From Candidatus Poseidoniaceae archaeon (GTDB lineage Archaea > Thermoplasmatota > Poseidoniia > Poseidoniales > Poseidoniaceae): DNA of 64,000 nt. Under the pieces are notes generated by a model. That model worked only from the letters and a program-made list of their open reading frames with translations, did not search any database and was not told where the DNA came from. The stretch spans positions 5,873 to 69,872 of the forward strand of contig CASIBX010000005.1 in the NCBI GenBank assembly GCA_949373075.1. Direction: 5' to 3'. Positions 35,304 to 59,953 of this stretch are shown in pieces. Within the stretch, counting starts at the first letter, position 1, and every line of letters starts with the position of its first letter. The position numbers and the translations under genes were made by a program.

Positions 35304-35322
35304 GGCCACCCTACGGGTGGCC
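35304..35322. promoter_or_regulatory. GC-rich perfect hairpin in the divergent rfcS / giant-gene intergenic region
   Basis: GGCCACCC-tac-GGGTGGCC is an 8-bp stem (7 GC pairs) with a 3-nt loop. It lies 48 nt upstream of the ATG at 35370 and just before an AAACTATA TATA-like element at 35333-35340. Confidence 0.25.
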
Positions 35323-35369
35323 AGCCGAAAGGAAACTATACCACCTCTGTCAATGGTTACCCGAGCCCA

Positions 35370-44300: not shown

Positions 44301-44423
44301 AGAGAAGATTGGATGTCAGACTATCGTGTTGAAGACGACGGTACTGAATGGGCTGAAGATGGTGAGGCATCTTGGTGGTTCCGTGATGCTGGAACATCTG
44401 AATGGCAAGAGTGGACCGATTAA
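35370..44423 (+). CDS. Giant (3017-aa) surface protein: 7x [DNRLRE-like + FN3-like] super-repeat, ~8 Ig-like (Big_2-like) domains, TM anchor, acidic/Trp-rich tail
   Basis: The start is taken at MSTNTRDRRRIASSLLLAMMFLFADLALPQA, a signal that may be Tat-type. D(T/S)xIDS...N.G motifs begin at nt 35541, 36498, 37503, 38496, 39471, 40466 and 41388. Interleaved modules end in W/Y-x-W-R-V. Ig-like repeats delimited by ITVxxG run from about 41920 to 44050. The TM helix is at about 44098-44172. Confidence 0.85.
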   Translation: MSTNTRDRRRIASSLLLAMMFLFADLALPQAVPDWTNEVLEDETTVFQTVSTFSPSKDTAIDSSNPMSNYGSDETVNLGSTFTGESKILISFNNTVPGTDLVTDAVLKLTCGVDPLDLGAINIYNSRLLKSWDEGNSTWEDAANGVSWELPGAEGTSDYDSWEPPFYGYANNTFSINVTAVVQDAVANSRSTIELILAATGTQYECQMSESPNSGGLPYLEISHQTGSHTNGGSLTPNFVEDGAALMDDSQFVLSAAANPELSWEGLTGSHAQIQLSMSENFLSSDDDNWYYNTKDNSSIFTLNSGDGEMTVPTGDELSNSSTMHYRMRSIDSNETIGSWVTGYFHLPGHSITMSGNYGTLSVGFDDLGLTENTIEDTFIDSNDKNTNLGSEENFTVGSSSSSDQYGLMRLNLDDLGLHHNSSIISANIVMTRDSFSSSADVSLHVMDGEDWTEDSVTWRKYDGTNNWNDGGRVPSMSVGNFTGSQSSSTIEVDIAVALQHWIDENNDAIQAGLSPESSLDLLMVASTFGIEELSTQSVKICATESLTCNQPKIEITYDWDSNGPPEIPTHVAPLDGHGVWDLIGDNLTGDTNPTLSWNGSIVWSGDMIMQVAKDPEYREIIHSFNTGDSSTSFASSDGNWTVSSTDTLQDGVMYHWRLAQQDSTTNHHSWWETSSFLVSGLESEYIQDDEHRLRLSHGNATTAGDSPDCGDTYIDSGTPNSNYNGEDDMQVSYNTFPSETSIILGCDLTSHLLPSGYAVQTATLKMRLSDYPIGSPKIGAWESRQHNWTEEGATWQSYDGNSANSWGTSGAKGWERAGLLDSITLGGTYSAGDWVEFDITLAVQNAMREDRAVDLVLGIVGVGSGVDRDALFYPNSASSSNRPEISFIYVPGSDALPSEPVPQSPLNGSWSVENGINPAPEQSPQLSWNFSSTAVTIGGWSIELDTSPNFDSADLLMATSWTDSGFDITNQTYDIASPLDTGETWHWRVRATSSTNQIGNWSNSFHFLLPDITTWSIDSNSAAVELHHREAMPSLNIPNFIDSWVADSGIGSTADQSSSSSMKVGTDSNGANATGLLKIPLTELPNPQNAHIANAVLNLYAEFGSDTGNSVSIHPALVAWNTSANGTTYDGVNNWSSPGAMGTGDRGLLVDVQDSGSATWMSFDVTELVQAAFANGDSHVSLLVVGSVDEGQTTFTTTEGTSSDRPWINMTWATGNASSPESAGSNSNPTPNQIIWDTSTHALLPGSTPSLTWTHSNPSNVDDWRVFIWNDYSDERAGWTVYDSRDSSNGWDIANLTWTSPSSLSAGDSYEWFVQPITNDILGSRGTDTIFHIPASTGASINSTDAYITLQEGQIVEALNYPAIFMDTYLDSGNANSAYEGGTELIIGRSNYTTAQNHYTESMIMVDWSTLPIPSSHEFFDSELTLHKVSGGDINQESVRIAVCEVQDTWNQSATMNGPTGANSTWTNPKCDIPFEIKTMDYQDNTIDLDITYAVQHAHAAGLDKVNLLFKIVSDTDEEWHFASSDYTDDETKRPEVKLEWRTGTQWLPSPAMSLLPADGSTIWNETSSRPRGADDVTMNWTGVESNETRWVMQSSTSAHFTNENETWLMDLTDNNTFNGTWDYSSLAYTTSDNIEWGDYWIYWRVRAEQDHRLGTWSSVNSFRVPGILGSDDGAGNNTIVLYDGSVFNQTSSLPGVPDATIDSSRSNNSLGNNGELDLGISAGGSGESMILLTFDLSELPFPSAMTPTNVLLSLYRYDVNGTSSQTVSVHACDTFNERSVTWNTAPSCSSTEVTRTTLLIFPPDGWQEWDLTSLAQSNIANGNNTLSIMLKSVGTPTSGHSFYDNSYNDSIKPKLILEYVDNVDGVIPPSQPVLNNPIDGAILYNTTNWVLESLDKPELTWNSVTNATGYVVTIASTGGQLKYKSWEDSEINGTTFTFSQDLVEGSVYSWWVQAINGSIPGPSSSRRSFAIGSPVDNTYNDDHTWTYNFQTGNEVADLGHTNIRDSYIGSGFANQNHGSESMMVGTNCEGANTECRMIIALDNDQVPLPPGAKIHSASIKLSTESPLVGNLTLNVHRLLTNSWTQSGSTWNNSAGGTPWSAAGMTAGVEYEASPIYSKTINPAVSEVWLELGHSGMLIDGDHAWIVIGTSTVGAPGWIEFFSSESSLDYRPTILINYTDVHSASVSPTGTTTDADTPVQFSHILNDAAGGNVAEDVVWSTTDGTINTTGMFTPKQIGTHSITACFGVICATEQITVTPGLPVTLIVEDVEETITADDTFTVIAMVHDQHGNIVPGQTISYTPSNGTMSGSTYYPYSSGNQVVSVFWNGQSIAVNIEVVGGIPTHYVTTGCESVVNAGETCQLNWTLHDQFGNMLDLAVGGGITWTTGGGVFTEANGTYYATTVGDYNITMQSTGGISHVIPITVDHGEMVSLEIIASETFVTADDTVWLNTTRIDIMGNRLSVELPLANWTVSDGLLVEGLPAEWHAQRRGSKTITGSYAGMESSVVIQVVEGAITGLVLVIDSEDSTNSLQEITADDEITIKVKAHDSDGNRWTENVAWTIEHIQFSDQSVLQEMTYGSTTMFVPVFSSDSTYTLRATYTDSNITLDVTLDISVAHGYLVNVALELPNSLSQNIDADNNLQFLPKLTDSDGNIIDSSIVSYSLKDLTSRNVTNITDIIVGNGGVWEASTVGDWEITAWAMSGNGYMINETVSITVQHGDAVSVAIDVIANTAKAGDQYSLTITGTDSDGNTFLESVLWTQNNKAVPSSTIYGNSGEYNWNATTAGDHTFKFRSPSGAENEWTVTVSAHQTVSRIELTIADETVQQLETFEIEVHTFDAWENEIPVPPETQVELTGRMTAEAGENGFWTITTLDDEKQTVTIKVHSVEASSTIVVEGNFMGFFESGGTLYYAGGILAILVVIVLLVVIVMVFRSGNSEYEDEDEDDDGYYPEEKSEQSPAAVGPGPSGPPQVKTGREDWMSDYRVEDDGTEWAEDGEASWWFRDAGTSEWQEWTD

Positions 44424-44473
44424 TCGGTAACTTAGATAATCTAAGAATGTGATTTTAGAATGGAGATGGTGTA

Positions 44474-47044
44474 TTGGACAAACGGATTATCTCCATCATG
44501 TTAGTTATCTTGATGGTACAAATCTCAGTTCCAGTGCATGCTGCAAACCCTGCAAGTATCAATATTGATTCACACACTCAAAGTGTTAGCGCTGACCAAG
44601 CAGTTCGTTTTTCTGCGGTGGTGAAGGATTCATCTGGAAGTCCGATAAATGAACCTATTATTTGGTCAGCAAGCTCAGGGTCAATCGATTCAGAGGGGTT
44701 GTTTACACCTGGCGTTGTTGGACAGACAATTATTACTGCAACTAGTGGAAATGTAAATTCTTCAACTACGATTAACGTCGTGGCTGGTTGGCCTGTTGGA
44801 ATACAATCGGGATTCAATGGTACTGAGATCAGTATTGATGATGAAATTCAGTTGAATGCATCTCTTATCGATAGAGCGGGTAATATGGTCGAAGGTGAAC
44901 TAAGTTGGCGTTGCCAAAATGGAGTTATTGACTATGATAACAACACATGGAAACCCGAAGAAATAGGTAACACAACAATGCGAATTATTCACTTAGAATT
45001 AGAAGAGCGGGTAATATTTCATGTAGTTCCTGGAAGTCCTGAAACACTTGAGATTCCTTACGGATTAACTGTACAAAGTGGTACTACTCAGCATGTTATA
45101 CCAATAGCAAAAGATTCTCAAGGTAATGAAGTCGGTATTTCTAAAGCAGGTATTCTAACTTGGTTTGTAGAAAACGGTTCAATCTCTCAAACTGGATTAT
45201 TCTTTGGTGGAGCACCGGGCCTATGGAATGTTAGTGTTAACAGTTCATCTGGAGCCTCGGGAGTAGGAGTTATTCGAGTACTACCTGCTCAAGCCACAGG
45301 ACTAGATATTGAGATGGATGTAGAACAAGCAAGAACTGGCTCACCAGTAATCATTTCAGCCATAAGAACTGACGTTCTGGGTAATTCTGGTGAAGTCATT
45401 TTACCGTTAGCAAATTGGACAGTCCCTACTGGTTCACTATCGATGGATGGAGATTCAGTCATCTGGATTCCTTCTAAAATTGGTGAATGGACGATTGGGG
45501 TATCCGACCAAGGATTCTCTGCAACTATGCAAGTGAGTGTCTCTCAAGGAATAATCATAGGAATTGATGTATTGCTCTCAGAAGAGGTTTTACGCTCAGG
45601 AGATTCGATTGTTGCATCGATTTCAGCCTATGATGCTGCGAGTAATCAAAGATCTGTGGATGGTGCATGGACCATCGATAGCGAACTTGGTGCAGAAGAG
45701 CAAGATGGTTGGATGCAATTGAGACCGGGCCCTACAGGTGACTTCGCAATTTCTGCAAACTGGTTTGACAATGAAACTCAAATTGTGCATGAAGTCGATG
45801 TGGTTCTAAATGTCTCAACGGGAGAATTAGCTAGGATTGTTTTACCAACGAGTGGAACAAGAGTGCCCTCTGACGGCGTGCTAGACCTTTTGCCAACCTT
45901 TGAGGATGAATACGGCAATCATCTTGATGACGTACTAGTCAATTGGGTTATTGATGGCAATGACATGACTATGGAAATCAGATTAGCAGGTGAGAAATGG
46001 GCGCCATCTTCTCTTGGAATGCATGAAATACGGGCTATGGCTCAAGGTGTATTTGCGATTACTGACGTCGAGGTTATTGCAGGCACTGCAAGGCATATTA
46101 CAACTGACTACGATGGTGGAATTAACGTCACAAGTGGAGAAGAAGTTGAGATTACTGTGTCAACATTAGATGTTCATGGCAACATTGCTTTAGCATCGGA
46201 TATCATTTTCGAATTCGATGACCAACAAGGATTGATTTCTCCTTCATCTAAAGGTGATGGGTACTGGATGATTGAAGGTGGAGATGAAGGCGATTGGAAT
46301 TTACGTATGACTACTGGCTCTGCCGTACGAGACATCACAGTAAGTGTCACGCCAGGGGAACCGATTCGACTACTAGCTGAGATTCCAGAACAAAATCCCG
46401 AAGAAGGTAGCAAGATGATAATCAGGATATATGCTATTGACCAAGCAGGGAACAGAGTTGAAGTTCCGTCTGATGAGATTACCATTCAATGTACCGTAGG
46501 TTCAGTAAAACACCTATCTGATGATACGTATGAGGTATCAGTAGACCAAGCAGGTCAATCCCAATCTTGTAATGCATATTGGAATGACCTCGTCGCACAG
46601 AGATTTTTCGATGTAAATGCAGTACTATTTGGTGGGGGGCTGGGCAACACCAATACTGCTCTCACAATGGTATCAATCATAGTTTTCTTATTCATATCGA
46701 TAATGTTAGTTTTGATTCGCCGAATCAAGAGTGAACAAAGTGATGATGAATATTGGGAAGATGAGGAAGAAGATGATGAGGATTACTCCGAACCTGAAGT
46801 CGAACCCGAAACTGTAACTGAGATAGTTCCAAGAGAAAAAGAAGTTACTGTAGAAGAAGATTCTAGTGAACTGAAATCTAAGGAAGATCTACGTCAACAC
46901 CTTGCAGATGAAGCGAAGAAAACTGGTGTAATGCAAGCAGCACCTGGAACTGAGCAAGGAAAAACGGGATGGTACATCGATTCAAGCGGAGAACTAACCT
47001 CATGGTTGGTTACGGAAAGTGGAGAATGGACTAGGATGTCCTAA
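44474..47044 (+). CDS. Surface protein of ~8 Ig-like (Big_2-like) repeats with signal peptide, C-terminal TM anchor and acidic/Trp-rich tail
   Basis: A TTG start with GGAG 8 nt upstream gives the signal peptide MDKRIISIMLVILMVQISVPVHA. Repeat borders are INVVAG, FHVVPGSPETLEI, IRVLPAQATGLDI, VSVSQG, LNVSTGELARIVL, VEVIAG and VSVTPGEPIRLLA. The TM helix is at about 46658-46717. Confidence 0.8.
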   Translation: MDKRIISIMLVILMVQISVPVHAANPASINIDSHTQSVSADQAVRFSAVVKDSSGSPINEPIIWSASSGSIDSEGLFTPGVVGQTIITATSGNVNSSTTINVVAGWPVGIQSGFNGTEISIDDEIQLNASLIDRAGNMVEGELSWRCQNGVIDYDNNTWKPEEIGNTTMRIIHLELEERVIFHVVPGSPETLEIPYGLTVQSGTTQHVIPIAKDSQGNEVGISKAGILTWFVENGSISQTGLFFGGAPGLWNVSVNSSSGASGVGVIRVLPAQATGLDIEMDVEQARTGSPVIISAIRTDVLGNSGEVILPLANWTVPTGSLSMDGDSVIWIPSKIGEWTIGVSDQGFSATMQVSVSQGIIIGIDVLLSEEVLRSGDSIVASISAYDAASNQRSVDGAWTIDSELGAEEQDGWMQLRPGPTGDFAISANWFDNETQIVHEVDVVLNVSTGELARIVLPTSGTRVPSDGVLDLLPTFEDEYGNHLDDVLVNWVIDGNDMTMEIRLAGEKWAPSSLGMHEIRAMAQGVFAITDVEVIAGTARHITTDYDGGINVTSGEEVEITVSTLDVHGNIALASDIIFEFDDQQGLISPSSKGDGYWMIEGGDEGDWNLRMTTGSAVRDITVSVTPGEPIRLLAEIPEQNPEEGSKMIIRIYAIDQAGNRVEVPSDEITIQCTVGSVKHLSDDTYEVSVDQAGQSQSCNAYWNDLVAQRFFDVNAVLFGGGLGNTNTALTMVSIIVFLFISIMLVLIRRIKSEQSDDEYWEDEEEDDEDYSEPEVEPETVTEIVPREKEVTVEEDSSELKSKEDLRQHLADEAKKTGVMQAAPGTEQGKTGWYIDSSGELTSWLVTESGEWTRMS

Positions 47045-47051
47045 TCCGTAA

Positions 47052-48692
47052 TCACTCGAATTGAGCGGTAAACTCTACAATATCGATTACGCCATTTTCA
47101 TCGGTGTCTATTTCATGGAAAATGACTCGGCACTCAGCATCGTCATATGAGAAACCTAAAGCATGCATTGCAACTTGGAACTCTTTCAAAGTCAGGTGAC
47201 CTTTGCCACCCATATCGGCTGCATTGAAGGCAACTTCTCTTCTATCATGTTCGGTTTCACTTGGATTTCTAAATTCAGAACGGAATGTATCAAACGGAGT
47301 AGTTCTTGGGTGAGCGTGGTTTTTACCATATAGTTGGTAAACAATCAAACCCATTACTATAGCAGCTACTGCTCCTATGATTGCCTTTTCTCCCATGATA
47401 TATACCAGAGCCAAACCAGATAAGATTCCCCAAATGTGAATTAAAGGATAAAGTGGAGCCCTATACTCAGGGTTCCATTCGTGTTTGTAACTAGTCTGAC
47501 GTAGAATGATTACACATGAATTGATCATAATGAATATCATTATTTTGAACCCTGATGCTAGTTTTGCAACATCCTTTACAGGAAGTAAAAGAATTGTCAA
47601 ACCCATTGCTGCTGCAGTCAAAATAATTGGCCAATGAGGAGTTTCATATTTTGCATTGACTTCCTCTAAGGATTGAGGAAGTAAACCATCTCTAGCCATT
47701 GCAAACAAAAATCGAGATGCGGCTAAGATTCCTGCAAGAGCCATGGAAATCATAGTGAGAACCGCTAAAATGGCTGCAAACACACCGATTTTTGAACCTG
47801 CAACCGATTCTACAAATTTGTAAATTGGGTCTTCTATTGCATCTCCGCTACTGTTCACCCACCACTCTCCGGGGATTGCTGCCATCATCATGTAGGTGAT
47901 GCTACAATAGAGAATGGTTGCTATTATCAAAGAAATTAGGATTCCATAAGGCAAATTCTTTCCAGGGTTTTTGACTTCACCCCCAATCGCAGCAACCTTG
48001 GTAACACCTGCATAAGCGACGAAAACAAAGGCAGCAGTTTCAGCAATTGTCCACGGGTCTGTATCCCATGCCGCATTCCATGGCCCAGACATATCAGTCG
48101 AATCAGCGAATAAAGCCATCACTGAGACAATTAACAAAAGACACAATGTAAATCCTAAAATTGGAGCTTGTATTATCTTGACTTTCTTAACCCCGAGAAT
48201 ATTTACTACTGTGATTAATATTAGTGCCGATAATGAAACGATGTACGTATTCAGTTCAATATCAAAATAAGTAGTAACAGTGTACATGTAGGCAGAGAAG
48301 CCAATTAGAGCAAATGAAGATTTTAACAAAAATGATGCCCATAATCCTAAACCGCTAATCGTACCAACAAGTGGACCATAGGTTCGCTCCAAATAAACGT
48401 ATGAACCCCCACTAGAAGGCATTCCTGAAGCCAATTCTGATTTTGAAAGAGCACCAGGCAACACAACAGATGCAGCGAGTAAGAATGCTAACCAAATACC
48501 TTCACCCATTATCATTGCTGCAAAGGATGGTAAAACGAATAACCCCGAACCAAGCATTGCTGAAAGTGAAATAATAATTACACCAACTAGACCCACCGAG
48601 CGCTCAATCTGGACCTTTACGTCCTCGACAACACCCCGTACATCACCTTTCAGTAATTTGTTAGCAGTTGATCTGATATCGATTGTAACCAC
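47052..48692 (-). CDS. APC-superfamily amino acid permease fused to a C-terminal EF-hand pair
   Basis: About 12 TM helices with the APC-type motifs MLGSGLFVLP and GGSYVYLERTYGP. The C-terminal 70 aa has a degenerate EF loop (DMGGKGHLTLKE) and a canonical one (DTDENGVIDIVE, 47073-47108). The start is a GTG. Confidence 0.8.
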   Translation of the reverse strand: MVTIDIRSTANKLLKGDVRGVVEDVKVQIERSVGLVGVIIISLSAMLGSGLFVLPSFAAMIMGEGIWLAFLLAASVVLPGALSKSELASGMPSSGGSYVYLERTYGPLVGTISGLGLWASFLLKSSFALIGFSAYMYTVTTYFDIELNTYIVSLSALILITVVNILGVKKVKIIQAPILGFTLCLLLIVSVMALFADSTDMSGPWNAAWDTDPWTIAETAAFVFVAYAGVTKVAAIGGEVKNPGKNLPYGILISLIIATILYCSITYMMMAAIPGEWWVNSSGDAIEDPIYKFVESVAGSKIGVFAAILAVLTMISMALAGILAASRFLFAMARDGLLPQSLEEVNAKYETPHWPIILTAAAMGLTILLLPVKDVAKLASGFKIMIFIMINSCVIILRQTSYKHEWNPEYRAPLYPLIHIWGILSGLALVYIMGEKAIIGAVAAIVMGLIVYQLYGKNHAHPRTTPFDTFRSEFRNPSETEHDRREVAFNAADMGGKGHLTLKEFQVAMHALGFSYDDAECRVIFHEIDTDENGVIDIVEFTAQFE

Positions 48693-48792: not shown

Positions 48793-50178
48793 TCAAACTT
48801 TAGCGATAACCTTCATTTCAACAGCGATTGGTGTAGGAAGGGCCCTAATTGCTAAAGTCGTCCTAGTAGGACCTACTTTACCCAATGTCTCAGCCCAAAC
48901 TTCGTTGTAACCGGAAAAGTCACGATCCATGTCCACCAAAAATGAAGTTACATCAATCACCTTATCGAGTGAAGACCCTGCTTCCTCTAGTATTCTTGCA
49001 ATGTTGTTGACTACTGCTTTTGTTTGAGCTTTGATATCATAATCAAGTGGATTGCCATTCGAGTCTTTGATAGGCCCTCCTGGAATTGAGTTGTCACCGG
49101 GCTGTCTTGGCCCAACACCTGAAAGATAGAGTAAATCCCCTTCTCTTCTGGCATGAGGGTATGCTCCAACTGGCTTAGGTGCCTTGTTGGTATTAACCGT
49201 ATTTTTACCTTCTACTGGGTCATATAATTTCGGCCCAGAATTAGTTGAAGGTGAGGAATCATCCTCGCCTGAGTCGAGAACATTTCTGTCGCCTCCATAG
49301 AAGTCAACATCGTCTTCATCATACTCTTTGTCGCCAGTTCCATTAGATTCGGGGTCTAGTACAACTACGGCAGCACCCGCACCATGAATTGGCTCATAGG
49401 CCAATACCTTGCCAGTTAGATCATTCCTATTACCATTCATTGCAGATAGCCACCACATCGGTTTGAAAGCAACCACTTTCTTGACACGTATTTGGTCATG
49501 TATAGTTCTACTCAGTTGTCCAATATCTTCCAAGCGACCTTCTGAAAGGAACTCGAGTATTTTTTGATTCCATTCATCATCTTTGAGAGAATGTATGCGG
49601 TCCTCATGTGGTTCAATAGGTTCTGTAAACATGCGGTTAGACAAAGACATTACTGAAACAGCGACTACTTTCTTTCCTTGTGCCTTAATCACGTCTTGGC
49701 AAGCCTTAGCTAAAACCGTGGTTTCAGCACGATTAGAATATACATTTGTTGAACAAATTACTGCAGGAATACGATTGTTGGGATTTAGTAACTCAAGCGC
49801 AACTACGGAACCAACGTCTACTGGAAATCCTTCGTAAGCGACCGTACGTGATTCTAATCCTCTTGCGAGATTCGCCTTATTCCATGCATGAGAAAAATCA
49901 GAATCGATGCGGAGGGAATAATGAATGCTGCCTAGGTCATGGAAATCTGCATCGACCATAACCCATTTGGGATTGGGGTCTGCTTGGATTTGATGACCAA
50001 TAACACTAGGCCATAGAGTCGAGTAAATGATTATCAAATCAGCATCGCTTTCTTCGATTTGGCGTCGAGCCTCATCATAAGCATCACGAATGCGTTGCCA
50101 TCCCTCATTCTTCTCCGGACAAAGTACGGGATGTGGATGTGCAGGAACGATTAGGGATTTGATTACCTCTCCTGACAT
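48793..50178 (-). CDS. Fusion: LigB-family dioxygenase alpha-like subunit (AmnA-like) + RidA/YjgF domain (AmnD-like 2-aminomuconate deaminase candidate)
   Basis: The N-terminal ~285 aa are a LigB-superfamily domain without the HPPH metal motif (PAHPHPVLCP). An acidic linker follows. The C-terminal ~128 aa (about 48796-49180) are RidA: KPVGAYPHARREGDLLYLSGVGP...IDVTSFL...RTTLAIRALPTPIAVEMKVIA. The ATG at 50178 follows GGAGGAG and the upstream TGA. Confidence 0.7.
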   Translation of the reverse strand: MSGEVIKSLIVPAHPHPVLCPEKNEGWQRIRDAYDEARRQIEESDADLIIIYSTLWPSVIGHQIQADPNPKWVMVDADFHDLGSIHYSLRIDSDFSHAWNKANLARGLESRTVAYEGFPVDVGSVVALELLNPNNRIPAVICSTNVYSNRAETTVLAKACQDVIKAQGKKVVAVSVMSLSNRMFTEPIEPHEDRIHSLKDDEWNQKILEFLSEGRLEDIGQLSRTIHDQIRVKKVVAFKPMWWLSAMNGNRNDLTGKVLAYEPIHGAGAAVVVLDPESNGTGDKEYDEDDVDFYGGDRNVLDSGEDDSSPSTNSGPKLYDPVEGKNTVNTNKAPKPVGAYPHARREGDLLYLSGVGPRQPGDNSIPGGPIKDSNGNPLDYDIKAQTKAVVNNIARILEEAGSSLDKVIDVTSFLVDMDRDFSGYNEVWAETLGKVGPTRTTLAIRALPTPIAVEMKVIAKV

Positions 50179-50180
50179 AT

Positions 50181-51074
50181 TCACTCCTCCCATGAATGGC
50201 ATGGCCATTCCATTATTGCATTACCAGTTCCAATAATTGTCCCATAACCATGTAGAATTGCAGGCTGTTCGGGGACATCTAAAGCAGATAGTAGCCAAGT
50301 CAATGCCCCACCATCTGCTTCAGCGATTGCTTGTTCACAGAATTCTGGCATTTCATCGATTAACTGTTGAGATTTACCTTGCCTCATCATTTCGATCATT
50401 CGCATATCCCAAAGGTGCATTGCATGACTAGCAATATGCTCTTTACTCATGTCTTCAGGGGGATTGGTTTCAGTTACGAAATGGCGATGCGATAGAGAAT
50501 TACTAGCCAAAAGTAAGCACTTCTTGCCACTTTCTTCTATTGCCTTGGCGGTTGAACGTCCAAGCTCTAGCATCATTTCTTGCATTACTTCAACCGAATA
50601 ATAGGATAGGCTGCGGTTAGATGAAATCGAAACTATCGGTTTATCCCACTCTGGCCTGACCATATGACAAGATACGATTGTGCCATAATCGACGCGGAAA
50701 TCGGGGTTTTCCATCATCTTTACAGCCATTCCTTGAGATTCGGCTTGGTCATGAATTGCACGTGCAAGTTCAACATCGATATTCAAATCATAATTGAATC
50801 TGAATAGATTTGGGAAAACGGGGTCTACACTTTTTGAAGTACACTTTTCTACTCCAATAAAGTGAGTTCCAACATAGGTTTGCCAATGAGGAGATAGTAC
50901 AACTATTACATCGTAGTCGATGTTTTTCAAGGATTCTCTAAGACGCTCATAACCCCAGCGTAATTGTTCCCAGCCACCTTCGGAAACCGGTTCATTTTGC
51001 TCGGGGTTTTCCGCATAAACAAGATGAGGTGGATGAGGAGCAAGGCAGCCTGCAACAATAGAACCCTTCGCCAT
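50181..51074 (-). CDS. Extradiol ring-cleavage dioxygenase, LigB family, catalytic beta subunit (2-aminophenol 1,6-dioxygenase AmnB-like)
   Basis: IVAGCLAPHPPHLVYAENPEQNEP, SPHW, SVDPVFPNLFRFNYDLNIDVELA, FRVDYGT, ASNSLSHRHF, WDMRMIEMMRQGK and GYGTIIGTGNAIMEW. The protein closely recalls AmnB along its whole length. Confidence 0.75.
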   Translation of the reverse strand: MAKGSIVAGCLAPHPPHLVYAENPEQNEPVSEGGWEQLRWGYERLRESLKNIDYDVIVVLSPHWQTYVGTHFIGVEKCTSKSVDPVFPNLFRFNYDLNIDVELARAIHDQAESQGMAVKMMENPDFRVDYGTIVSCHMVRPEWDKPIVSISSNRSLSYYSVEVMQEMMLELGRSTAKAIEESGKKCLLLASNSLSHRHFVTETNPPEDMSKEHIASHAMHLWDMRMIEMMRQGKSQQLIDEMPEFCEQAIAEADGGALTWLLSALDVPEQPAILHGYGTIIGTGNAIMEWPCHSWEE

Positions 51075-51117
51075 GTCATAACCAAGAGGTTCCGCATCTT
51101 CTATTCATCGGCGACGC

Positions 51118-51540
51118 TTGGGCCAAAATATGGGAAACGGTGTCGACCTCAAATTCCGCCATGTTTTGTGGCCTACTGTTTTTGGAATTGGCGTTGTATC
51201 TTTGTGCGCATATACATTAGAAATACATAATCTCCCGCCTATGGTTCTTGCATTGTTACTAATGGTATTATTTTCACCAGTACTAGGAGTTCTAACCAAA
51301 TCGGGCGACCTTCGTGAACATGCCATCGGGGTAGCAGTTGTCTGCATCCCAATGGCTGGCTTATGGGCACTTGGAGGTAATTATTTTAATATTGCAATAC
51401 CTTTCTTAATTTGGATTTGGCAATGTGCATCATGGTCAAAAAAGAACCTGCCCCCGTTTAGATATGGGATTTGGCACGGATTTGGTATTGCATTCAGCAT
51501 AGTACCTGGTGCAATGTTGTATGCTGGAATATTTCAGTAG
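51118..51540 (+). CDS. Small hypothetical 4-helix membrane protein
   Basis: 140-aa ORF that is hydrophobic throughout. It is the only + strand gene inside the minus-strand catabolic cluster and overlaps the panB 3' end by 7 nt. Confidence 0.4.
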
Positions 51541-52349
51541 GACTCTTCTTCATTTGGGAAATCGCCACTACGGACATCTTCACAATACTGTTGCACTGCT
51601 CCCGTAATTTGAGTTTCCAAATCGAGATATCGTCTCAGGAACCTTGGACTGAAATCAGTAGTAATTCCTAGCATATCGTGTAAAACTAGAACTTGACCAT
51701 CACAATCTTGACCAGCCCCTATTCCAATAGTTGGAATGGAAATTGCCTCACTAACTTGTTTTGCTAGATGCGCAGGTATCTTTTCGAAAACTATTGCAAA
51801 GCAACCAGATTCTTCTAGCAACTTAGCATCTTCAATTAATTTTGCAGCTTCTTCCTCTTCTTTAGCCCTAACTGTGTAGGTTCCGAACTTGTAGATTGAT
51901 TGTGGAGTTAGACCAAGATGCCCCATTACTGGAATACCTGCACTCAAAATTCTTTGAACACTTTCAACTATTTCGGAGCCACCTTCAAGTTTCACAGCGT
52001 GGCCTCCTGATTCTTTCATTATGCGAATAGCGCTTTCGAGGGCTATTGCAGAATTGCCCTGATATGTACCAAATGGCATATCGACAACGATTAGAGCACG
52101 GTCAACCGCTCTCTCAACACATTGTGCATGATAGATCATATGGTCTAGACTCATTGGAACGGTTGTATCTCTACCAGCCATAACGTTTGACGCTGAGTCT
52201 CCAACAAGAATTACGTCAACACCACCTCGGTCAACCAGTTTAGCAAGGCTGTAATCATAAGCGGTTAGCATAGTGATTTTTTCACCCGCTCTCTTCATTT
52301 CCTGAAGGGTGTGTGTAGTCACTTTGCGAGCGTTTGAATGGACGGACAT
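51534..52349 (-). CDS. panB: 3-methyl-2-oxobutanoate hydroxymethyltransferase (ketopantoate hydroxymethyltransferase)
   Basis: [51 protein letters not shown] and IVFEKIP motifs. Confidence 0.9.
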
Positions 52350-52386
52350 ATGATTACCTCGATTTGTGCGAAAAGGTGTTCAGCCT

Positions 52387-53766
52387 TCAATCTTCCATAA
52401 CGCAAATATTGACCGCTTCACTGAAGAAACCGACGGACCACATACCACCTTCCCTACCAACACCGCTATCTTTCACTCCACCAAAGGGTACGCGCAAGTC
52501 GCGGTGCAACCAAGTGTTGACCCAAACCATTCCAGAATCTATTTTTTCGGCTATCACACGGCCTTTATTCTTCGACCAAACGCTGCCGGCTAATCCGTAC
52601 TGAGTTGAATTTGCCATTTGTATTGCTTCATCATCAGAATCAAACTGGTGAATTGTGACTACTGGTCCAAATATCTCTTCAGTTGCTGTGCGTGATTTAT
52701 GTGAAAGGCCACCTATCACAGTTGGCTCTATCCAGGAGCCTGGTTTATCTGGAATATTTCCTCCAGCCAATATGTGGCCTCCTTCTTGTTTTGCTAATTG
52801 AACATAAGACATGACTTTGTCTCGATGGCTATCATTAATCACAGGACCTATTTCGAAACTCTGAAGTTGTTCGAGGTACTTTGACATGAAGTCCTCATAG
52901 ATAGAGGAATGAACCAGAACTCTAGAACCACACAAACAAATTTGTCCAGAGTTAAGGAATGACGCTCTTAGCACCCCTGGAACTGTAATCTCTAGGTCTG
53001 CATCTTCCATAATTATGGATGCATTCTTACCGCCTAATTCAAGACTTAATTTCTTGAACATAGGAGCTGCCGTGGCTGCAACTATTTTCCCTGTGGCTGT
53101 GCCACCTGTAAACGAGATTGCCTTGATTTTAGGATGCTCAACTATTGCTTGTCCAATCTCTGGCCCGTAACCATGTACAATGTTTAGCACCCCATCTGGC
53201 AACCCTATATCAGTGCAAACTTTGCCCAAAAAGTGAGCTGTGATTGGAGTTATTTCGCTAGGTTTAGCAATAATGGTATTCCCCATCAACAGTGCAGGAG
53301 CAACTTTCCAAGATAGAAGGTATAGTGGGAGGTTCCAAGGTGAAATTAAGCCGACTATTCCGATTGGTTTTCTCATGACATAATTTGTTGCATCTGGCAT
53401 CTCGAAGGTTTCCGATTTCATATTCCTACCAAATTCAGCAAAGAATCTGAAATTATTTACAGACCGGTCTGCGTCTACATTGAGAGCTACATGATGCGGT
53501 TTACCAGTATCCAATGATTCCAGTCTGGCAAGTTCGTCTATTTGTGATTCCAAAGAGTCTGCAATTTTGTCTAGCCAGTCACAACGTTGCAGTAAACTTA
53601 GTCCACTCCATTGCGATTGTGCTTTTTCAGCAGCAGTTACCGCTCCTTCAACATTCTTAGTACGAGGAATCGTTGCAATTACAGTACCATCTAAGGGTGA
53701 GATATCATCAAAGAATTCAGTGGGGGAAACAAACTCTCCCCCAATCAAATTCTCTATTCGAATCAT
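52387..53766 (-). CDS. NAD(P)-dependent aldehyde dehydrogenase (2-amino/2-hydroxymuconic semialdehyde dehydrogenase-like)
   Basis: ALDH superfamily motifs: SPWNLPLYL, FTGGTATG, LELGGKNA (catalytic Glu), GQICLCGSR (catalytic Cys) and EEIFGPV. Specificity is inferred only from the neighbouring amn-like genes. Confidence 0.8.
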   Translation of the reverse strand: MIRIENLIGGEFVSPTEFFDDISPLDGTVIATIPRTKNVEGAVTAAEKAQSQWSGLSLLQRCDWLDKIADSLESQIDELARLESLDTGKPHHVALNVDADRSVNNFRFFAEFGRNMKSETFEMPDATNYVMRKPIGIVGLISPWNLPLYLLSWKVAPALLMGNTIIAKPSEITPITAHFLGKVCTDIGLPDGVLNIVHGYGPEIGQAIVEHPKIKAISFTGGTATGKIVAATAAPMFKKLSLELGGKNASIIMEDADLEITVPGVLRASFLNSGQICLCGSRVLVHSSIYEDFMSKYLEQLQSFEIGPVINDSHRDKVMSYVQLAKQEGGHILAGGNIPDKPGSWIEPTVIGGLSHKSRTATEEIFGPVVTIHQFDSDDEAIQMANSTQYGLAGSVWSKNKGRVIAEKIDSGMVWVNTWLHRDLRVPFGGVKDSGVGREGGMWSVGFFSEAVNICVMED

Positions 53767-54878
53767 ACGTCGACCTCATAATGCCAGCGGTCTTGATCAG
53801 GGTCCCATTCATCCCAAGTGGGAATTGTTTCTAGTACATCATGTAGATTGTCAGGAACGATTCCTGAGACGATGAATGCTTTTTGTCTGTGAAGCGGGTA
53901 AGGATTTCTCAATTCAATTCCGAGGCAACCCAATATTGCTCTGGCAACATACCATGTTGCTTGAGAATTCCATCCATGCGCAATTTTCACCACGATTCCT
54001 AACCCCTTAGGGTAATCAGGATGCTCAATCGCCATTCCCAGTAAACCATCTGCGCCTTCTTTAGCGATTACCTTACCATTGCCAATTTTTAGAATTGTAG
54101 AATCTAGCCTGTTAAATCCGCCAACTAAATCGGGATGGCGACACATTGCTTCCCAAATCCAATCCTCATCTTTGTCCCTAACCAGTCCAGCGTAAATTTT
54201 AGCCAACTCTGCAACTGTGTTTGAGACGGTAGGAAGACCACAACCATCTTTTGCAATCCTTAGTGGATTCCAATCATCGCCCAAATACTTCCTTATCTGC
54301 TCCATATAGGCATGAAATACCTCGTGATTAGGCAAGGTATAGCCGGCTCTGCCCCATCCTTTTGCACGGCAACCTGCTAGAATTGCAGCATGTTCACCAC
54401 TACAGGTATGATACCATCTTCTTGGACGTCTTACTTGGCGTCCAAATTGAATAAGAGGAACATCTACTGGAGTGAGCATAAGGGGCCATTCCGCTTCATA
54501 AAGTAAAGATTGAGCGGCAGCTACATGTTCAGTATCGCCATTATGGCTAGCGACAGCAATTGCTTTTTGTTCCCAAGTGTGGTCTTTTAATTCCTCAGTA
54601 AAGGCCTTGAGCATGAAGGGCTTCATCATTGAACGACCATAACACAGTACATTGCCTCCAAATGAATGTACTACTTCGTCACCGTGGCACCATGCAACAG
54701 CACCATGTATTGTGGTTTCTGAAACACCATTGCGACGGTAATCGACCAACGGCTCCCATTCAACATCTCTTCCGGTGGGAATGCCTTCTACATCCTCCCC
54801 TAATGGTGAATCGGGATAGATTGCAGACCCTGGTTTGCCCGGTGCTACTGCTGAATTAGGGTCGTGTCTTAATCCCAT
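53763..54878 (-). CDS. Asparaginase II (PF06089-type) family protein
   Basis: RSMMKPFMLKAF, ASHNGDTEHV, HTCSGEHAAILAGC and DGCGLPT match the family's S.xKP / SHxGE..H / CSGKHA / DGCG series. The start overlaps the ALDH stop by 4 nt. Confidence 0.65.
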   Translation of the reverse strand: MGLRHDPNSAVAPGKPGSAIYPDSPLGEDVEGIPTGRDVEWEPLVDYRRNGVSETTIHGAVAWCHGDEVVHSFGGNVLCYGRSMMKPFMLKAFTEELKDHTWEQKAIAVASHNGDTEHVAAAQSLLYEAEWPLMLTPVDVPLIQFGRQVRRPRRWYHTCSGEHAAILAGCRAKGWGRAGYTLPNHEVFHAYMEQIRKYLGDDWNPLRIAKDGCGLPTVSNTVAELAKIYAGLVRDKDEDWIWEAMCRHPDLVGGFNRLDSTILKIGNGKVIAKEGADGLLGMAIEHPDYPKGLGIVVKIAHGWNSQATWYVARAILGCLGIELRNPYPLHRQKAFIVSGIVPDNLHDVLETIPTWDEWDPDQDRWHYEVDV

Positions 54879-54882
54879 TTAA

Positions 54883-56109
54883 TCACTCCAACAAAGGTAC
54901 TACTTCGTGCCACCATGCTTCCATATTACGGATAACTCGGTCGCTATCGTGATTAAAGAAATCAAACCAACACATTAGACGGTCTTCAGGATGAAAACGC
55001 TCTTTGACCTGAGATGCTACCTCGCTGGCATTCCCAATTAGTGCATTATCTGCTGCCTTCTCGACCTTAGATGGGTCCAGAGTGCCTTCGAGTGCTTTCC
55101 AATACTCTCCTAATGCTTGCCTAGCCTCTTCGTGAGCAGCAAGAGATTGCTCCTCAGGAGAAAGTCCCTTCTCGGAATTAAGGAATACAAATGTAGTCCG
55201 AGGCATATCCCTACGTTGCCATTCGCCCCCATCCGAATGAAACATTTCGCTCATTCTTTGGTGGGTCGAATCAATAACTTCGGGAGAGGTTATAGAGAGA
55301 TTGAAAACTTTGACTGGCATGAATTTGTTGACAAACTCTTGGGCCTTAGGATCGTGAGTTCCCGCAACCAATTCTAATTGGGATCTAGGCCATTGTTTAG
55401 GAACTATTGAAATCTCTTCGAAATTATATCTCCTTTCAACCTCTATACTTCCCACAGTCGATTCTCCGGATGTTTCCTCTACTGCAAGTTGGACTTTGTC
55501 CCAATCTTCGTCACTACGGAAATTATCTCGAGTCAATATGGTTTCTCTTATGTCATCAGAATGAATCGTATCACCGCGTAGTAGTCGCAAGAATATCTCG
55601 CTTGCTTCCATGAAAATCTGACCGCGCAAAGCTGGCCATGCTGCTTCTTCGATTGGATTACGGGGGACGATTCCATATGGACGTGCCATGAATTCAAATC
55701 TGCCAGCACTAAAACCAACATGCAATTTCCTTTTGGAATCCATGTGGGAAAGGAATTGTACGGTGTTAGCAACTCTTTCGGCTTGAGCGATTGGACCACC
55801 ACTAGCCAGTATACTGACTACTGCCGAGCCAACATCAATTCTTTTTGTCCTTCTAAAAGATTCCATTGCTAATTGACAAAAGTCAGTACATAAACCAACT
55901 TCGCCTTGCCAATGAGGAACCACTGGCTTGGAGTTATCCTGTTGTGTTTGGGTCGATAAATGAGCCTGAGCTATCCATGCAACTCCGAACCCTAAACGGT
56001 CTGCTGCATCTAATTGTGCGTAGTAATTAGAGAACATTTCGGACTCGCTAGGTGTGAATCCATTATGGTCTGGAGTCTGTGATATCGAGAAGAATATGTC
56101 GTACTCCAT
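54883..56109 (-). CDS. Luciferase-like (LLM class) flavin-dependent oxidoreductase, with an internal insertion
   Basis: DAADRLGFGVAWIAQAHL and RIDVGSAVVSILASGGPIAQAERVANTVQFLS...HVGFSAGR resemble the LLM N-terminal barrel. The ATG at 56109 (MEYDIFFSI) is preferred over the track start at 56154. Confidence 0.5.
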   Translation of the reverse strand: MEYDIFFSISQTPDHNGFTPSESEMFSNYYAQLDAADRLGFGVAWIAQAHLSTQTQQDNSKPVVPHWQGEVGLCTDFCQLAMESFRRTKRIDVGSAVVSILASGGPIAQAERVANTVQFLSHMDSKRKLHVGFSAGRFEFMARPYGIVPRNPIEEAAWPALRGQIFMEASEIFLRLLRGDTIHSDDIRETILTRDNFRSDEDWDKVQLAVEETSGESTVGSIEVERRYNFEEISIVPKQWPRSQLELVAGTHDPKAQEFVNKFMPVKVFNLSITSPEVIDSTHQRMSEMFHSDGGEWQRRDMPRTTFVFLNSEKGLSPEEQSLAAHEEARQALGEYWKALEGTLDPSKVEKAADNALIGNASEVASQVKERFHPEDRLMCWFDFFNHDSDRVIRNMEAWWHEVVPLLE

Positions 56110-56153: not shown

Positions 56154-56951
56154 CTATTCGGCTGTTAGTTTAGAGACACGTTCTCTAACTGGCTCAGGAA
56201 CTACTTCTCCTGCTTCCATGAAAACGGTCATGATGTCTGAAAGTTGAACCATTGCCTCATCGGGCTGATTCGAAATTTCGGCTAAATCTGCTAATCCCCA
56301 TCGAGCAACTAATATCCCGGAGAGGTCATTAATTTCAGTTGCTATCGTAAGAGACTGAATGAGTAATTCTTGAGATTGTTCCAACTCACCTAGCGTAGAA
56401 TGGGAGTGCGCTAAATCAGCAAGTGCTTCCATTTTCTCAAAACGCTCTGATTCGGGAATGAGTTCCAATCTCTTTCGAAGATGGAGTTGACTCTTTTCAA
56501 ACTCGCCATCTTCTTTTGCAATATGGGCAATTAATGCATGACCGTAAATCATGCCCTCTAAGTCCTCGGCTTGTTCACGAAGTCGCATTGAGCGGTTTGC
56601 AAAAACACCTGCATCTTCGCTGCCCAATGAGATCAAGGACACATGGTGAAAAATACCTGCCGCTAATCCAGGTAGTCCTTCATTTTCAGAAACCACACCT
56701 AGACCTATCAATTCATCCTTACTCGCACCATTGTGCTTCAGTAGTTCGAATTGGCACCAACCTTGGTCTTCAGGATTCAATGAAACCTTAGCAGCATGGT
56801 CTAGTAACCTAGCGACAAGCGCATCTCTTCCCAAGTCGCGTGCTAATTCAACAAGATGTAATGCTAGACTTGTGTTTACCGATTCCAAACCTTCGCCTTC
56901 GGCGAACATCTCTAGAACTTCTTCTGCTTGTGTTGGACTCATTTCTGGCAA
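56154..56951 (-). CDS. Hypothetical all-helical TPR-like repeat protein
   Basis: 265 aa with recurring ~34-aa helical-hairpin periodicity (for example ALADLAHSHSTLGELEQSQELLIQSLTIATEINDLSG). No catalytic motif. Confidence 0.4.
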   Translation of the reverse strand: MPEMSPTQAEEVLEMFAEGEGLESVNTSLALHLVELARDLGRDALVARLLDHAAKVSLNPEDQGWCQFELLKHNGASKDELIGLGVVSENEGLPGLAAGIFHHVSLISLGSEDAGVFANRSMRLREQAEDLEGMIYGHALIAHIAKEDGEFEKSQLHLRKRLELIPESERFEKMEALADLAHSHSTLGELEQSQELLIQSLTIATEINDLSGILVARWGLADLAEISNQPDEAMVQLSDIMTVFMEAGEVVPEPVRERVSKLTAE

Positions 56952-56960
56952 GTTCTCACC

Positions 56961-57746
56961 TCAGATTGAACGCATTCGTCCGCCGTCGACAGCTAAGGAG
57001 ACACCACGAATACCGCCTGCTATGGGCATGCAAAGATATGCGATTGCAGCACCGGTTTCCAATGGGTCGATCAATCGGCCAATTGGAACCTGAGTCATCC
57101 ACCCAGAATGTACATCTTCCACACTCTTTCCTGTCTTTTCATTGATGGAAGCCGCCAAGGAACCTAGACGGTCAGTATCTGTAAACCCAGGAAGGACATT
57201 GTTGATGGTAATGCAAGATGGTAATTCGCTTGAAAGCGTTTTCGACCAAGATGCCATTGCTCCACGAAGTGTATTGGAAAGTCCAATGTTTGGAATTGGT
57301 TCTCTAACTGAAGTAGAGATGACATTGACTATCCTACCCATTCCTGCGTCTTCCATCATCGGAGCGATTCCTCTGACTAAAGTGTGGGCGGCGTGAAGAT
57401 GACGCTTGAAAGGTGCTTCAAAGTCTTCGATGTCATTATCCAGAAGTGGACCTCCTGGCGGACCTGCTGCATTATTGATTAAGATGTGACATTCGCCAAT
57501 TGAAGAAATGAATTCGGCAATTGCTTCTTGGTTTTCCAAATCGAGACTAACTGCTGTATGTCCTGAGCCTGATAGTTTGGAAATTAAGTGCTCAGGATTC
57601 CTACTAACTGCAGTTATTTTTGCTCCTGCTTTTGCCAGCATTTGGGCAGTTGCAGCACCGATTCCTTTGGATGCCCCACAAACAATTGCATGTTTGCCAA
57701 CTAAGGCCGTAGTTGAGAAGGGGTAGTCGTCTCCTAGCCAGTCCAT
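56961..57746 (-). CDS. Short-chain dehydrogenase/reductase family protein, atypical active site
   Basis: GKHAIVCGASKGIGAATA (TGxxxGxG-like), NNAAG, PGFTDT. The usual YxxxK position reads SNTLRGAMASWSK, with no Tyr, as in the BKR-like SDR subgroup. The start is taken at M25 to avoid overlapping the upstream gene. Confidence 0.75.
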   Translation of the reverse strand: MDWLGDDYPFSTTALVGKHAIVCGASKGIGAATAQMLAKAGAKITAVSRNPEHLISKLSGSGHTAVSLDLENQEAIAEFISSIGECHILINNAAGPPGGPLLDNDIEDFEAPFKRHLHAAHTLVRGIAPMMEDAGMGRIVNVISTSVREPIPNIGLSNTLRGAMASWSKTLSSELPSCITINNVLPGFTDTDRLGSLAASINEKTGKSVEDVHSGWMTQVPIGRLIDPLETGAAIAYLCMPIAGGIRGVSLAVDGGRMRSI

Positions 57747-57778
57747 GCCAATGCCAAGGGGCGCACAGTATTGAACCT

Positions 57779-58369
57779 TCACAGCCAGTCTCGAATAGTT
57801 TCTACTTGCGCTAACCAATCATCACTGGCTACATCGATGATTGAAAAATGGTCGCCAGGCAACCATAACTTCTGAATTTCTACTCCCTTAGCATCCATGG
57901 CTCTAGCGTATGATTCTGATTGTGTCCAAGGGACTTCATCATCCGCTTTACCATGCATTACTAGGACTGCTGTTCGAGGGGGATTATCTACTGGATTAAT
58001 CCGCCTCCAAACCTCCTCATTACCTTCTGGCTTACAACCGACCCATCGGCGCACTGCATCTCCATCATCAGATAATTTAGCATGATCTGCTGCAACTAAA
58101 TCTGTGATCGGAGCTTGAGCGATAGTTAGCCAAGGTTTTCGATCTGCAACTGCAGCCATCATCAAAGCAAGATGACCACCAGCAGAATGACCCATTATCA
58201 TTGAGCGAACAATGTCGATTCCGGGTAACAAAGCAAGTTGGCCCCACGCACGCATGACGTCAGATAAAGTATCAACCCAAACGCCTTCATCACCTTCTGA
58301 CCATCCTTTGAATTCGATATTCCATGCCGCTATTCCTTGCTCAGCAAGGTCTTCAGCAATCGGTGCCAT
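57779..58369 (-). pseudogene. Alpha/beta hydrolase (esterase/arylformamidase-like), 5'-truncated at the compositional breakpoint
   Basis: GHSAGGHLA nucleophile elbow and C-terminal HGKADDEVP / GDHF. Upstream in frame the sequence reads ...FGFFLNNGGFWKTEYTLEL, the oxyanion-hole HGG region. There is no ATG or GTG there, and the frame hits a stop at 58469-58471, inside AT-rich foreign-looking DNA. Confidence 0.55.
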
Positions 58370-58446
58370 CAATTCCAGAGTATATTCAGTCTTCCAAAAA
58401 CCACCATTGTTGAGGAAAAATCCAAAACTCCTAGAAATCGATATTA

Positions 58447-59360: not shown

Positions 59361-59371
59361 TTGAATAATTT

Positions 59372-59941: not shown

Positions 59942-59953
59942 TTATTTAGGCCA

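Follow-up and report, generated by a model that had tools for sequence, protein, structure and literature searches.

The DNA analysed here is a stretch of 64,000 nt, referred to below as the window, from a Candidatus Poseidoniaceae archaeon (assembly GCA_949373075.1, contig CASIBX010000005.1, positions 5,873-69,872). Three of its open reading frames (ORFs), all on the minus strand, encode relatives of the amn enzymes of 2-aminophenol degradation, and one of the three is a gene fusion in which the non-catalytic subunit of a ring-cleaving dioxygenase continues into a RidA domain. The parts of this system are the following:

50181..51074, minus strand: AmnB-type catalytic beta subunit of 2-aminophenol 1,6-dioxygenase, 297 aa (PDB matches, iron ligands)
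49351..50178, minus strand: AmnA-type non-catalytic alpha domain of the fusion, aa 1-276 (3vsg_A match, Foldseek)
49204..49350, minus strand: acidic disordered linker of the fusion, about aa 277-325 (AlphaFold2 pLDDT)
48793..49203, minus strand: AmnE/AmnD-type RidA domain of the fusion, putative 2-aminomuconate deaminase, aa 326-461 plus stop (PF01042, 6izh)
52387..53766, minus strand: AmnC-type 2-aminomuconate/2-hydroxymuconate 6-semialdehyde dehydrogenase, 459 aa (7bzv, 4npi, arginines)

These are the positions at which a preliminary description of the stretch had placed the three ORFs, and the junction that it gave between the first two, with a second LigB gene starting 2 nt after the stop of the 297-aa gene behind GGAGGAG, was found as described. 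The amnB-type gene ends in TGG GAG GAG TGA and the ATG of the fusion gene (50178) follows 2 nt later, so that GGAGGAG sits just 5' of this ATG. Another in-frame ATG is present at 50208; homologues, however, start at the MSGE position.

The identity of the 297-aa protein is clear at the family level. Pfam scans, which covered 39 of the 48 window ORFs of at least 150 aa, including all long ones outside the giant surface proteins described below, detected LigB alone in this protein. In a search against solved structures, it matched the beta subunits of 2-aminophenol 1,6-dioxygenases over its whole length (8ihg_A, 8.5e-113; 3vsg_B, 4.6e-110; 7txy_B, 3.9e-90), far ahead of the next families by E-value, namely DHPA dioxygenase (4e-9) and DODA (0.003), and protocatechuate 4,5-dioxygenase gave no match at E<=1. 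On these E-values, membership of the protocatechuate, DODA and DHPA clades was ruled out. In the Comamonas enzyme, iron is bound by His13, His62 and Glu251, and Tyr129 and His195 are second-sphere residues (PMC5291488). When the window protein is aligned to 3vsg_B with HMMER, the iron triad is conserved as His14, His63 and Glu252, and the second-sphere residues as Tyr130 and His196.

The 461-aa fusion protein consists of a LigB domain (residues 18-271) and an Endoribonuclease L-PSP/RidA domain (Ribonuc_L-PSP, residues 331-460) according to Pfam. Its N-terminal domain matches the alpha subunit 3vsg_A at 3.9e-41, and its AlphaFold2 model (pLDDT 86) shows two confident domains joined by a linker that falls below 50 at residues 291-313. 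The top Foldseek matches of the two domains are AmnA (TM 0.93) and AmnE (TM 0.87, 40% identity), respectively. At the first two iron-ligand positions, the AmnA domain carries Ala13, where the family consensus is Gly, and Leu55, with STLW replacing SPHW; the first two iron ligands are therefore lost, as in AmnA, and across the family these positions are occupied by Ala/Gly and Leu/Gln.

The RidA domain (Pfam PF01042, 3e-24) contains Asn425, Arg439 and Glu454, which are invariant across the family and which we take to be the counterparts of the catalytic Asn88, Arg105 and Glu120 of RidA. Its best solved match is AmnE of Pseudomonas sp. AP-3 (6izh, 2.7e-27), followed by the best generic RidA at 8.4e-20, and like AmnE it has a Lp2 loop insertion, about 12 residues long, which is missing in the generic RidA proteins PH0854, TTHA0137 and ST0811. 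The Lp2 loop of AmnE and the role of its Arg56 in hexamer formation have been described (PMC6742747). Across the family, the RidA domain is 58% and the AmnA domain 46% identical to the window protein. The linker ranges from 24 to 101 aa, with both flanking domains conserved and in frame. It contains a semi-conserved motif, GDKEYDEDDV[DE].[YF], in Poseidoniaceae and another, SEEGSQAE.VEELTDFE, in Oligoflexus-type proteins; family members with short linkers lack these acidic-aromatic motifs, which could serve as docking peptides for a partner.

The third ORF contains the Pfam domain Aldedh, and the aldehyde dehydrogenase (ALDH) it encodes is closest to 2-aminomuconate 6-semialdehyde dehydrogenases, with E-values of 6.3e-133 (7bzv) and 2e-131 (4npi) down to 1.2e-127, the next family in the solved-structure search following at 1e-107. 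In the enzyme of Pseudomonas fluorescens, the key residues are Arg120, Arg464, Glu268 and Cys302 (PMC4286809), and the two arginines are strictly conserved in, and limited to, the HMSDH family (Huo et al., PMC4286809). Arg101, Arg422, Glu243 and Cys277 of the window protein align to these four residues in the 4npi alignment. The top NCBIfam model for the protein is 2-hydroxymuconic semialdehyde dehydrogenase. The preliminary description had read the three ORFs as an AmnB-like catalytic subunit, an AmnA-like non-catalytic paralogue fused through an acidic linker to a complete RidA domain, the family to which AmnD belongs, and an AmnC-like dehydrogenase, and had concluded that steps 1, 2 and 3 of a 2-aminophenol/3-hydroxyanthranilate-type pathway are clustered and two of them physically fused; the family matches, residues and models given above bear out these assignments and support the conclusion.

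The fusion is conserved in two domains of life. The identical 461-aa protein occurs on 11 public contigs and the identical 297-aa protein on 13, from several sources. More than 120 protein clusters match the fusion over its full length at 74-92% identity; those with a source name come from metagenome-assembled genomes (MAGs) of Poseidoniaceae, Poseidoniales or Euryarchaeota, and automatic database names of the relatives include 'Rid family hydrolase' and '2-aminomuconate deaminase'. In a scan of one genome per species, at least 592 relatives were found, and the best 80 of these are all from Poseidoniales, with 69-94% identity over residues 1-461. The same architecture occurs at 41-57% identity in many bacterial proteins, which were recovered among 50%-identity representatives and in a second homology search. 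The bacterial carriers include the isolate Oligoflexus tunisiensis (WP_176736482.1), Oligoflexus sp. and a Bdellovibrionales MAG; the bacterial breadth rests on such named homologues and on six context look-ups, the relatives listed from the species-level scan being Poseidoniales. The search of related MAGs that had been proposed at the outset thus showed a widespread protein.

This distribution decides whether the fusion could be a frameshift, a read-through or an artefact of assembly. The exact protein recurs on 11 contigs from several sources, full-length orthologues number in the hundreds across archaea and bacteria, one of them in an isolate genome, and both domains remain in frame whatever the length of the linker. 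Nothing was found in favour of an artefact; a breakpoint of assembly or rearrangement does occur in the window, but outside these genes, near 58.4 kb. We regard this explanation as refuted, its remaining probability being negligible.

The homology search of the fusion also returned proteins with other fusions (P0128, P0122, P0185 and P0197). In one of them, an 873-aa metagenomic protein, an ALDH of the semialdehyde dehydrogenase type is followed by three tandem RidA domains. This ALDH is 49% identical to that of the window and has both arginines, and its RidA copies belong to the same clade as the RidA domain of the window fusion, so that a separate fusion links steps 2 and 3 of the pathway independently. 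Two further arrangements were observed: a triple RidA protein in the protist (diplonemid) Diplonema japonicum, which is 54% identical to the RidA domain of the fusion, and two proteins in which a permease domain of a branched-chain amino-acid ABC transporter is joined to an AmnA-like LigB domain.

We consider it likely that these genes belong to an amn-type ring-cleavage module of this Marine Group IIa (Poseidoniaceae) archaeon, with activities that we infer from the family assignments and the conserved residues. In step 1, the iron-binding AmnB and the AmnA domain would act as a two-subunit extradiol dioxygenase and cleave the ring of an o-aminophenol, yielding 2-aminomuconate 6-semialdehyde. 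In step 2, the AmnC-type ALDH would convert this unstable aldehyde to 2-aminomuconate. In step 3, the RidA domain, tethered by the flexible acidic linker, would hydrolyse the enamine/imine, yielding 2-oxohex-3-enedioate and ammonia. The near-overlap or overlap of the genes, together with the fusion, would fix the ratio of alpha subunit, beta subunit and deaminase at 1:1:1 and would hold the deaminase close to the dioxygenase, whose reaction begins the chain of labile intermediates.

The predicted assembly follows from what is known of the separate parts. Solved AmnAB-type enzymes consist of two alpha-beta heterodimers that meet at the beta subunits, and the alpha and beta subunits are each insoluble without the other (PMC10470539). 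Because the dimer contact is made by the beta subunits, the C-terminus of the alpha subunit is a plausible site for an extra domain. RidA proteins, in turn, are trimers with active sites between subunits (PMC6742747), so that one RidA domain on a subunit of a two-fold complex would imply cross-linked, larger assemblies. Dimer- and trimer-forming units in one chain could thus build a higher-order assembly that confines labile intermediates. By contrast, the ALDH fusion bears its three RidA copies in tandem.

That the deaminase is joined to the enzyme of step 1, and not to that of step 2, invites another order of events, in which RidA acts earlier and hydrolyses the imine tautomer of 2-aminomuconate semialdehyde to 2-hydroxymuconate semialdehyde, which is then passed to the ALDH. 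Hydrolysis on leaving the dioxygenase would block cyclisation to picolinate. The ALDH family does take 2-hydroxymuconate semialdehyde, the imine tautomer is stabilised by the arginines of this family (PMC4286809), and the top NCBIfam model is that of the hydroxy form. Against this order stand the characterised relatives of the RidA domain, which act on 2-aminomuconate (PMC6742747; bioRxiv 10.64898/2026.06.05.730449), and the fusion of ALDH with three RidA domains, which puts RidA after the ALDH; we think it very improbable that RidA acts first.

The fate of the predicted product appears to differ from that in classical meta-cleavage pathways. The preliminary description had noted that the decarboxylase, hydratase and aldolase steps are missing from the window, and the Pfam scans agree with it: genes for 4-oxalocrotonate decarboxylase, 2-keto-4-pentenoate hydratase, 4-hydroxy-2-oxovalerate aldolase and acylating acetaldehyde dehydrogenase were found neither in the window ORFs scanned nor in the 10-kb flanks of the archaeal and bacterial loci, and window and flanks gave no Pfam match to an FAA-hydrolase, HMGL-type aldolase or acylating dehydrogenase. 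The product probably exits by a route other than the decarboxylase/hydratase/aldolase branch.

The neighbouring genes bear on where the aminophenol would come from. Those around the three core genes are listed below; panB and the small ORF, which lie between the ALDH gene and the LigB pair, had been omitted from the preliminary description:

53763..54878, minus strand: class-3 (Rhizobium etli type) asparaginase-like serine hydrolase, module member (PF06089, 2.7e-49)
54883..56109, minus strand: divergent luciferase-like (LLM) flavin-dependent oxygenase, module member (weak Pfam match to Bac_luciferase)
56154..56951, minus strand: tetratricopeptide-repeat (TPR) protein, conserved in Poseidoniaceae loci only (Pfam, locus comparison)
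56961..57818, minus strand: atypical short-chain dehydrogenase/reductase (SDR) without the catalytic Tyr, module member (adh_short_C2, NAD_binding_10)
57779..58372, minus strand: alpha/beta hydrolase (GHSAGG), N-terminally truncated (Pfam, synteny with relatives)
51534..52349, minus strand: panB (ketopantoate hydroxymethyltransferase), inside the cluster in Poseidoniaceae (TIGR00222, 338 bits)
51118..51540, plus strand: conserved small ORF between panB and amnB (locus comparison)
47052..48692, minus strand: APC-family amino-acid permease with a C-terminal EF-hand pair, directly downstream of the fusion (Pfam)

Orthologues of the window genes were located by script in 89 loci. The gene order in Poseidoniaceae is near-universal and starts with (alpha/beta hydrolase, SDR) - TPR - LLM - asparaginase-II-like - ALDH, followed by (LON substrate-binding gene) - panB - opposite-strand small ORF - AmnB - AmnA-RidA - amino-acid permease. 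One subclade differs in that its SDR and hydrolase genes have been relocated to just past the permease. Bacteria have a tight operon, SDR - LLM - asparaginase-II-like - ALDH - AmnB - AmnA-RidA. A six-gene module of SDR, LLM, asparaginase-like protein, ALDH, AmnB and AmnA-RidA is therefore common to archaea and bacteria. The panB, TPR and LON-substrate-binding genes and the small ORF were set aside as pathway members, being absent from the bacterial operons, and for this reason panB probably lies outside the pathway. The small ORF recurs in nearly all Poseidoniaceae loci and had no Pfam match. The permease adjoins the fusion in most Poseidoniaceae loci and is a candidate importer of the substrate. 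Its combination with a C-terminal pair of EF-hand calcium-binding motifs, kept beside the fusion in Poseidoniaceae, is unusual.

A PF04199 gene stands directly after the fusion in six of seven distinct loci from bacteria. In the two cases tested its product is the kynurenine formamidase KynB, matching 4cob at 6.8e-49 and scoring 206-209 bits with TIGR03035, for which the cut-off is 223. About 1.5-2 kb downstream of KynB, two Oligoflexus genomes carry a formate dehydrogenase-like set of ferredoxin, molybdopterin oxidoreductase and FdhD genes (L009, 13718-17137; L092, 14006-17406). KynB releases formate; as the two genomes are closely related, the sets count as one observation. The archaeal loci lack KynB and have an unrelated alpha/beta hydrolase instead.

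The conserved partners have unusual features of their own. The LLM and asparaginase-like proteins are orthologous between archaea and bacteria (380-480 bits), the bacterial asparaginase-like orthologues in the same operon scoring 450-480 bits and the LLM being 45-46% identical to its bacterial operon partners. Both Ser-Lys tandems of the Rhizobium etli enzyme ReAV, Ser48-Lys51 and Ser80-Lys263, are retained in the asparaginase-like protein, as are Cys135 and Cys189, and the zinc-binding Lys138 of ReAV is replaced by Glu. The LLM had no solved-structure match by sequence, and its AlphaFold2 model, built from a shallow alignment (pLDDT 67), matches folds of the LLM superfamily only, among them type II Baeyer-Villiger monooxygenases. 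The seven SDR members aligned, from archaea and bacteria, all have Ala (Ala162) at the position of the catalytic Tyr, keep Lys166 and share an invariant motif, SNT.RG; the family NAD_binding_10 includes flavin/biliverdin reductase B. Of four bacterial operons examined, two (L090, L092) have SDR and LLM genes that share 4 nt.

The position of KynB next to the fusion, and the conservation of the LLM, asparaginase-like and SDR genes alongside, indicate that the cell probably makes the aminophenol with this module, out of an N-formyl-arylamine or a kynurenine-type precursor, and does not obtain it from nitroaromatic pollutants. A specific version of this idea, which extends the ring-cleavage explanation and does not conflict with it, is a new route from kynurenine that seven conserved genes would encode. 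The formamidase would make kynurenine, and the LLM, for which the atypical SDR would serve as flavin reductase, would attack its aryl ketone in a Baeyer-Villiger insertion. The product would be a beta-(2-aminophenyl) ester of aspartate, which the asparaginase-like hydrolase would cleave to L-aspartate and 2-aminophenol, the latter being handed to AmnAB, ALDH and RidA. The conversion of an aryl ketone to an aryl ester and then to a phenol is the established logic of 4-hydroxyacetophenone catabolism.

Such a route would account for every conserved gene. It agrees with the position of KynB in the bacterial loci, with LLM and asparaginase-like orthologues common to archaea and bacteria, with the retention of the nucleophile and base Ser-Lys tandems in a hydrolase whose proposed ester substrate is the oxygen analogue of asparagine, with Baeyer-Villiger monooxygenases among the top folds of the LLM model, with an SDR that lacks its catalytic Tyr and whose gene is coupled to that of the LLM, and with the amino-acid permease that adjoins the fusion in archaea. 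On the other side, the route is wholly inferential; the LLM model is of low confidence and its fold matches are superfamily-generic, SDR-type flavin reductases are unusual, no precedent was found in the literature, the archaeal loci lack KynB and tryptophan 2,3-dioxygenase (TDO) was not seen near the loci. We therefore hold this particular route to be unlikely.

The preliminary description had suggested, as speculation, that the neighbouring genes extend the pathway towards an N-containing aromatic substrate. The synteny between archaea and bacteria backs this suggestion for the SDR, LLM and asparaginase-like genes. Its likening of the GHSAGGHL hydrolase to arylformamidases was not confirmed by the sequence search, and the resemblance stays at the level of the motif. 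An intact, syntenic orthologue of 248 aa from relatives matched carboxylesterase, MHETase and S9 peptidases by sequence, and the archaeal hydrolase was set aside as an arylformamidase.

Several observations weigh against the ring-cleavage module and its proposed precursor as set out here. On the side of the precursor, KynB is absent from the archaeal loci, no kynurenine formamidase was among the solved-structure sequence matches of the intact hydrolase orthologue, and the hydrolase copy in the window is truncated. No TDO was seen near any locus; more broadly, TDO, KMO, kynureninase, HAAO and ACMSD were found in none of the archaeal or bacterial flanks examined. On the side of the core enzymes, NCBIfam holds no aminophenol-specific model and its best matches score under their equivalog cut-offs, and the hexamer-determining Arg56 of AmnE is replaced by Asn in the RidA domain of the fusion, a change that bears on the oligomeric state and not on catalysis. 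Moreover, AmnAB-type enzymes also cleave catechol and the ALDH type also takes 2-hydroxymuconate semialdehyde (PMC10470539), so that the amino substrate is not fixed by sequence alone.

This promiscuity, together with the hydroxy form of the top NCBIfam model for the ALDH, is what would favour a dioxygenase acting on catechol or another non-amino substrate, with RidA as a general scavenger of reactive imines fused to it by chance. We find that quite unlikely. Generic RidA is more distant from the RidA domain than AmnE is, and the loop insertion of AmnE is present in the domain. A validated deaminase of this clade is inactive on 2-iminopropanoate, and human RIDA is inactive on 2-aminomuconate (bioRxiv 10.64898/2026.06.05.730449). 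A catechol pathway requires a tautomerase and not a deaminase (PMC10470539). Finally, the fusion of ALDH with three RidA domains ties this RidA clade to the semialdehyde dehydrogenase step. The module for an amino substrate therefore remains the preferred explanation.

The truncation of the hydrolase coincides with a change in the surrounding DNA. The window copy lacks the first ~50 codons, with IHGGFW altered to NNGGFW and no start codon, and synteny with all close relatives ends at about 58407, inside the hydrolase gene, where G+C drops from about 0.45 to about 0.33. Either a rearrangement of the genome or a chimeric join in the assembly could explain the breakpoint, which leaves the genes of the ring-cleavage module untouched. 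The low-G+C segment (58212-63935) contains a mevalonate-pathway cluster with HMG-CoA synthase-like, NUDIX, further GHMP kinase and diphosphomevalonate decarboxylase-like genes and a 747-aa fusion of HMG-CoA reductase and GHMP kinase (59954-62197). Elsewhere in the window, the plus strand encodes at 35277-47044 two giant proteins of 3048 and 856 aa, secreted or located at the surface, with C-terminal membrane anchors and acidic tails, and homologues of these giant proteins, with CBM96 matches, also flank the cluster in relatives. At 33164-33293 on the minus strand, a 130-nt Rfam tRNA match that was missed by ARAGORN fits an intron-containing archaeal tRNA, in line with the archaeal origin of the DNA.

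Marine Group II comprises uncultured, abundant archaea, and the module is syntenic in at least 80 species-level genomes. If the proposed pathway is true, these archaea have a defined, oxygen-dependent route that frees ammonia from an N-containing aromatic compound. The module places amn chemistry, which is known chiefly from degraders of pollutants, in a natural and ancient setting, with a probable link to compounds derived from tryptophan. If the kynurenine route is true as well, it replaces KMO, kynureninase, HAAO and ACMSD in Oligoflexia and in an archaeal group that is among the most abundant in the surface ocean. The AmnA-RidA and ALDH-3xRidA fusions indicate that labile intermediates are handled by physically linked enzymes, a task for which Actinobacteria use a microcompartment. 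As Oligoflexus tunisiensis is a cultured isolate with the full operon, the predictions are directly testable.

Three known systems invite comparison. The closest are the amn genes of Pseudomonas sp. AP-3 and P. pseudoalcaligenes JS45 (amnBACD(E)) and cnbC of Comamonas CNB-1, which have the same families in the same chemical order: a catalytic LigB beta subunit, a degenerate alpha paralogue, an ALDH of the HMSDH family and a RidA-type deaminase. The AmnB protein is similar to the solved amn and cnb enzymes over its whole length and has identical iron ligands. Unlike in those clusters, the alpha subunit and the deaminase are here one polypeptide, there are no nearby genes for 4-oxalocrotonate decarboxylase, hydratase, aldolase or acetaldehyde dehydrogenase, and there is no amnR regulator. 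The partners found here (atypical SDR, LLM, class-3 asparaginase-like protein and formamidase) are not known in amn clusters, and the hosts are uncultured planktonic archaea and Oligoflexia, whereas amn hosts are pollutant degraders. At the level of the deaminase, AmnE (PDB 6IZH, PMC6742747) shares with the window domain the RidA fold, 40% identity, the Lp2 loop and a PH motif where generic RidA has SQ; AmnE is a free 142-aa protein with Arg56, whereas the domain here sits at the C-terminus of AmnA and has Asn.

In the lower kynurenine pathway of bacteria and fungi (HAAO, ACMSD, AMSDH and 2-aminomuconate deaminase), the last two enzymes are shared with the module, as is the KynB formamidase in its bacterial relatives. 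Unlike in that pathway, 2-aminomuconate semialdehyde would be made here by a LigB-type aminophenol dioxygenase and not by the cupin HAAO plus ACMSD, and no TDO, KMO or kynureninase lies nearby. The module, the fusion and the route are described neither in the surveys of Marine Group II (MGII) genomes and transcriptomes that were checked nor in the papers found by full-text searches on MGII with aminophenol, on RidA fusions and on kynurenine with Baeyer-Villiger chemistry, and the databases give only automatic names.

In the ARO bacterial microcompartment of Actinobacteria, AmnAB, ALDH and 2-aminomuconate deaminase likewise occur together, with the later steps elsewhere, and the true substrate has also been placed upstream of 2-aminophenol (PMC10470539). 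There, the enzymes are co-localised by a protein shell and encapsulation peptides; here, this would be achieved by covalent fusion, with no shell genes. Taken together, the chemistry and the enzyme families of the module are known, while the fusion, the missing lower-pathway genes, the partner genes and the hosts are new relative to amn and cnb.

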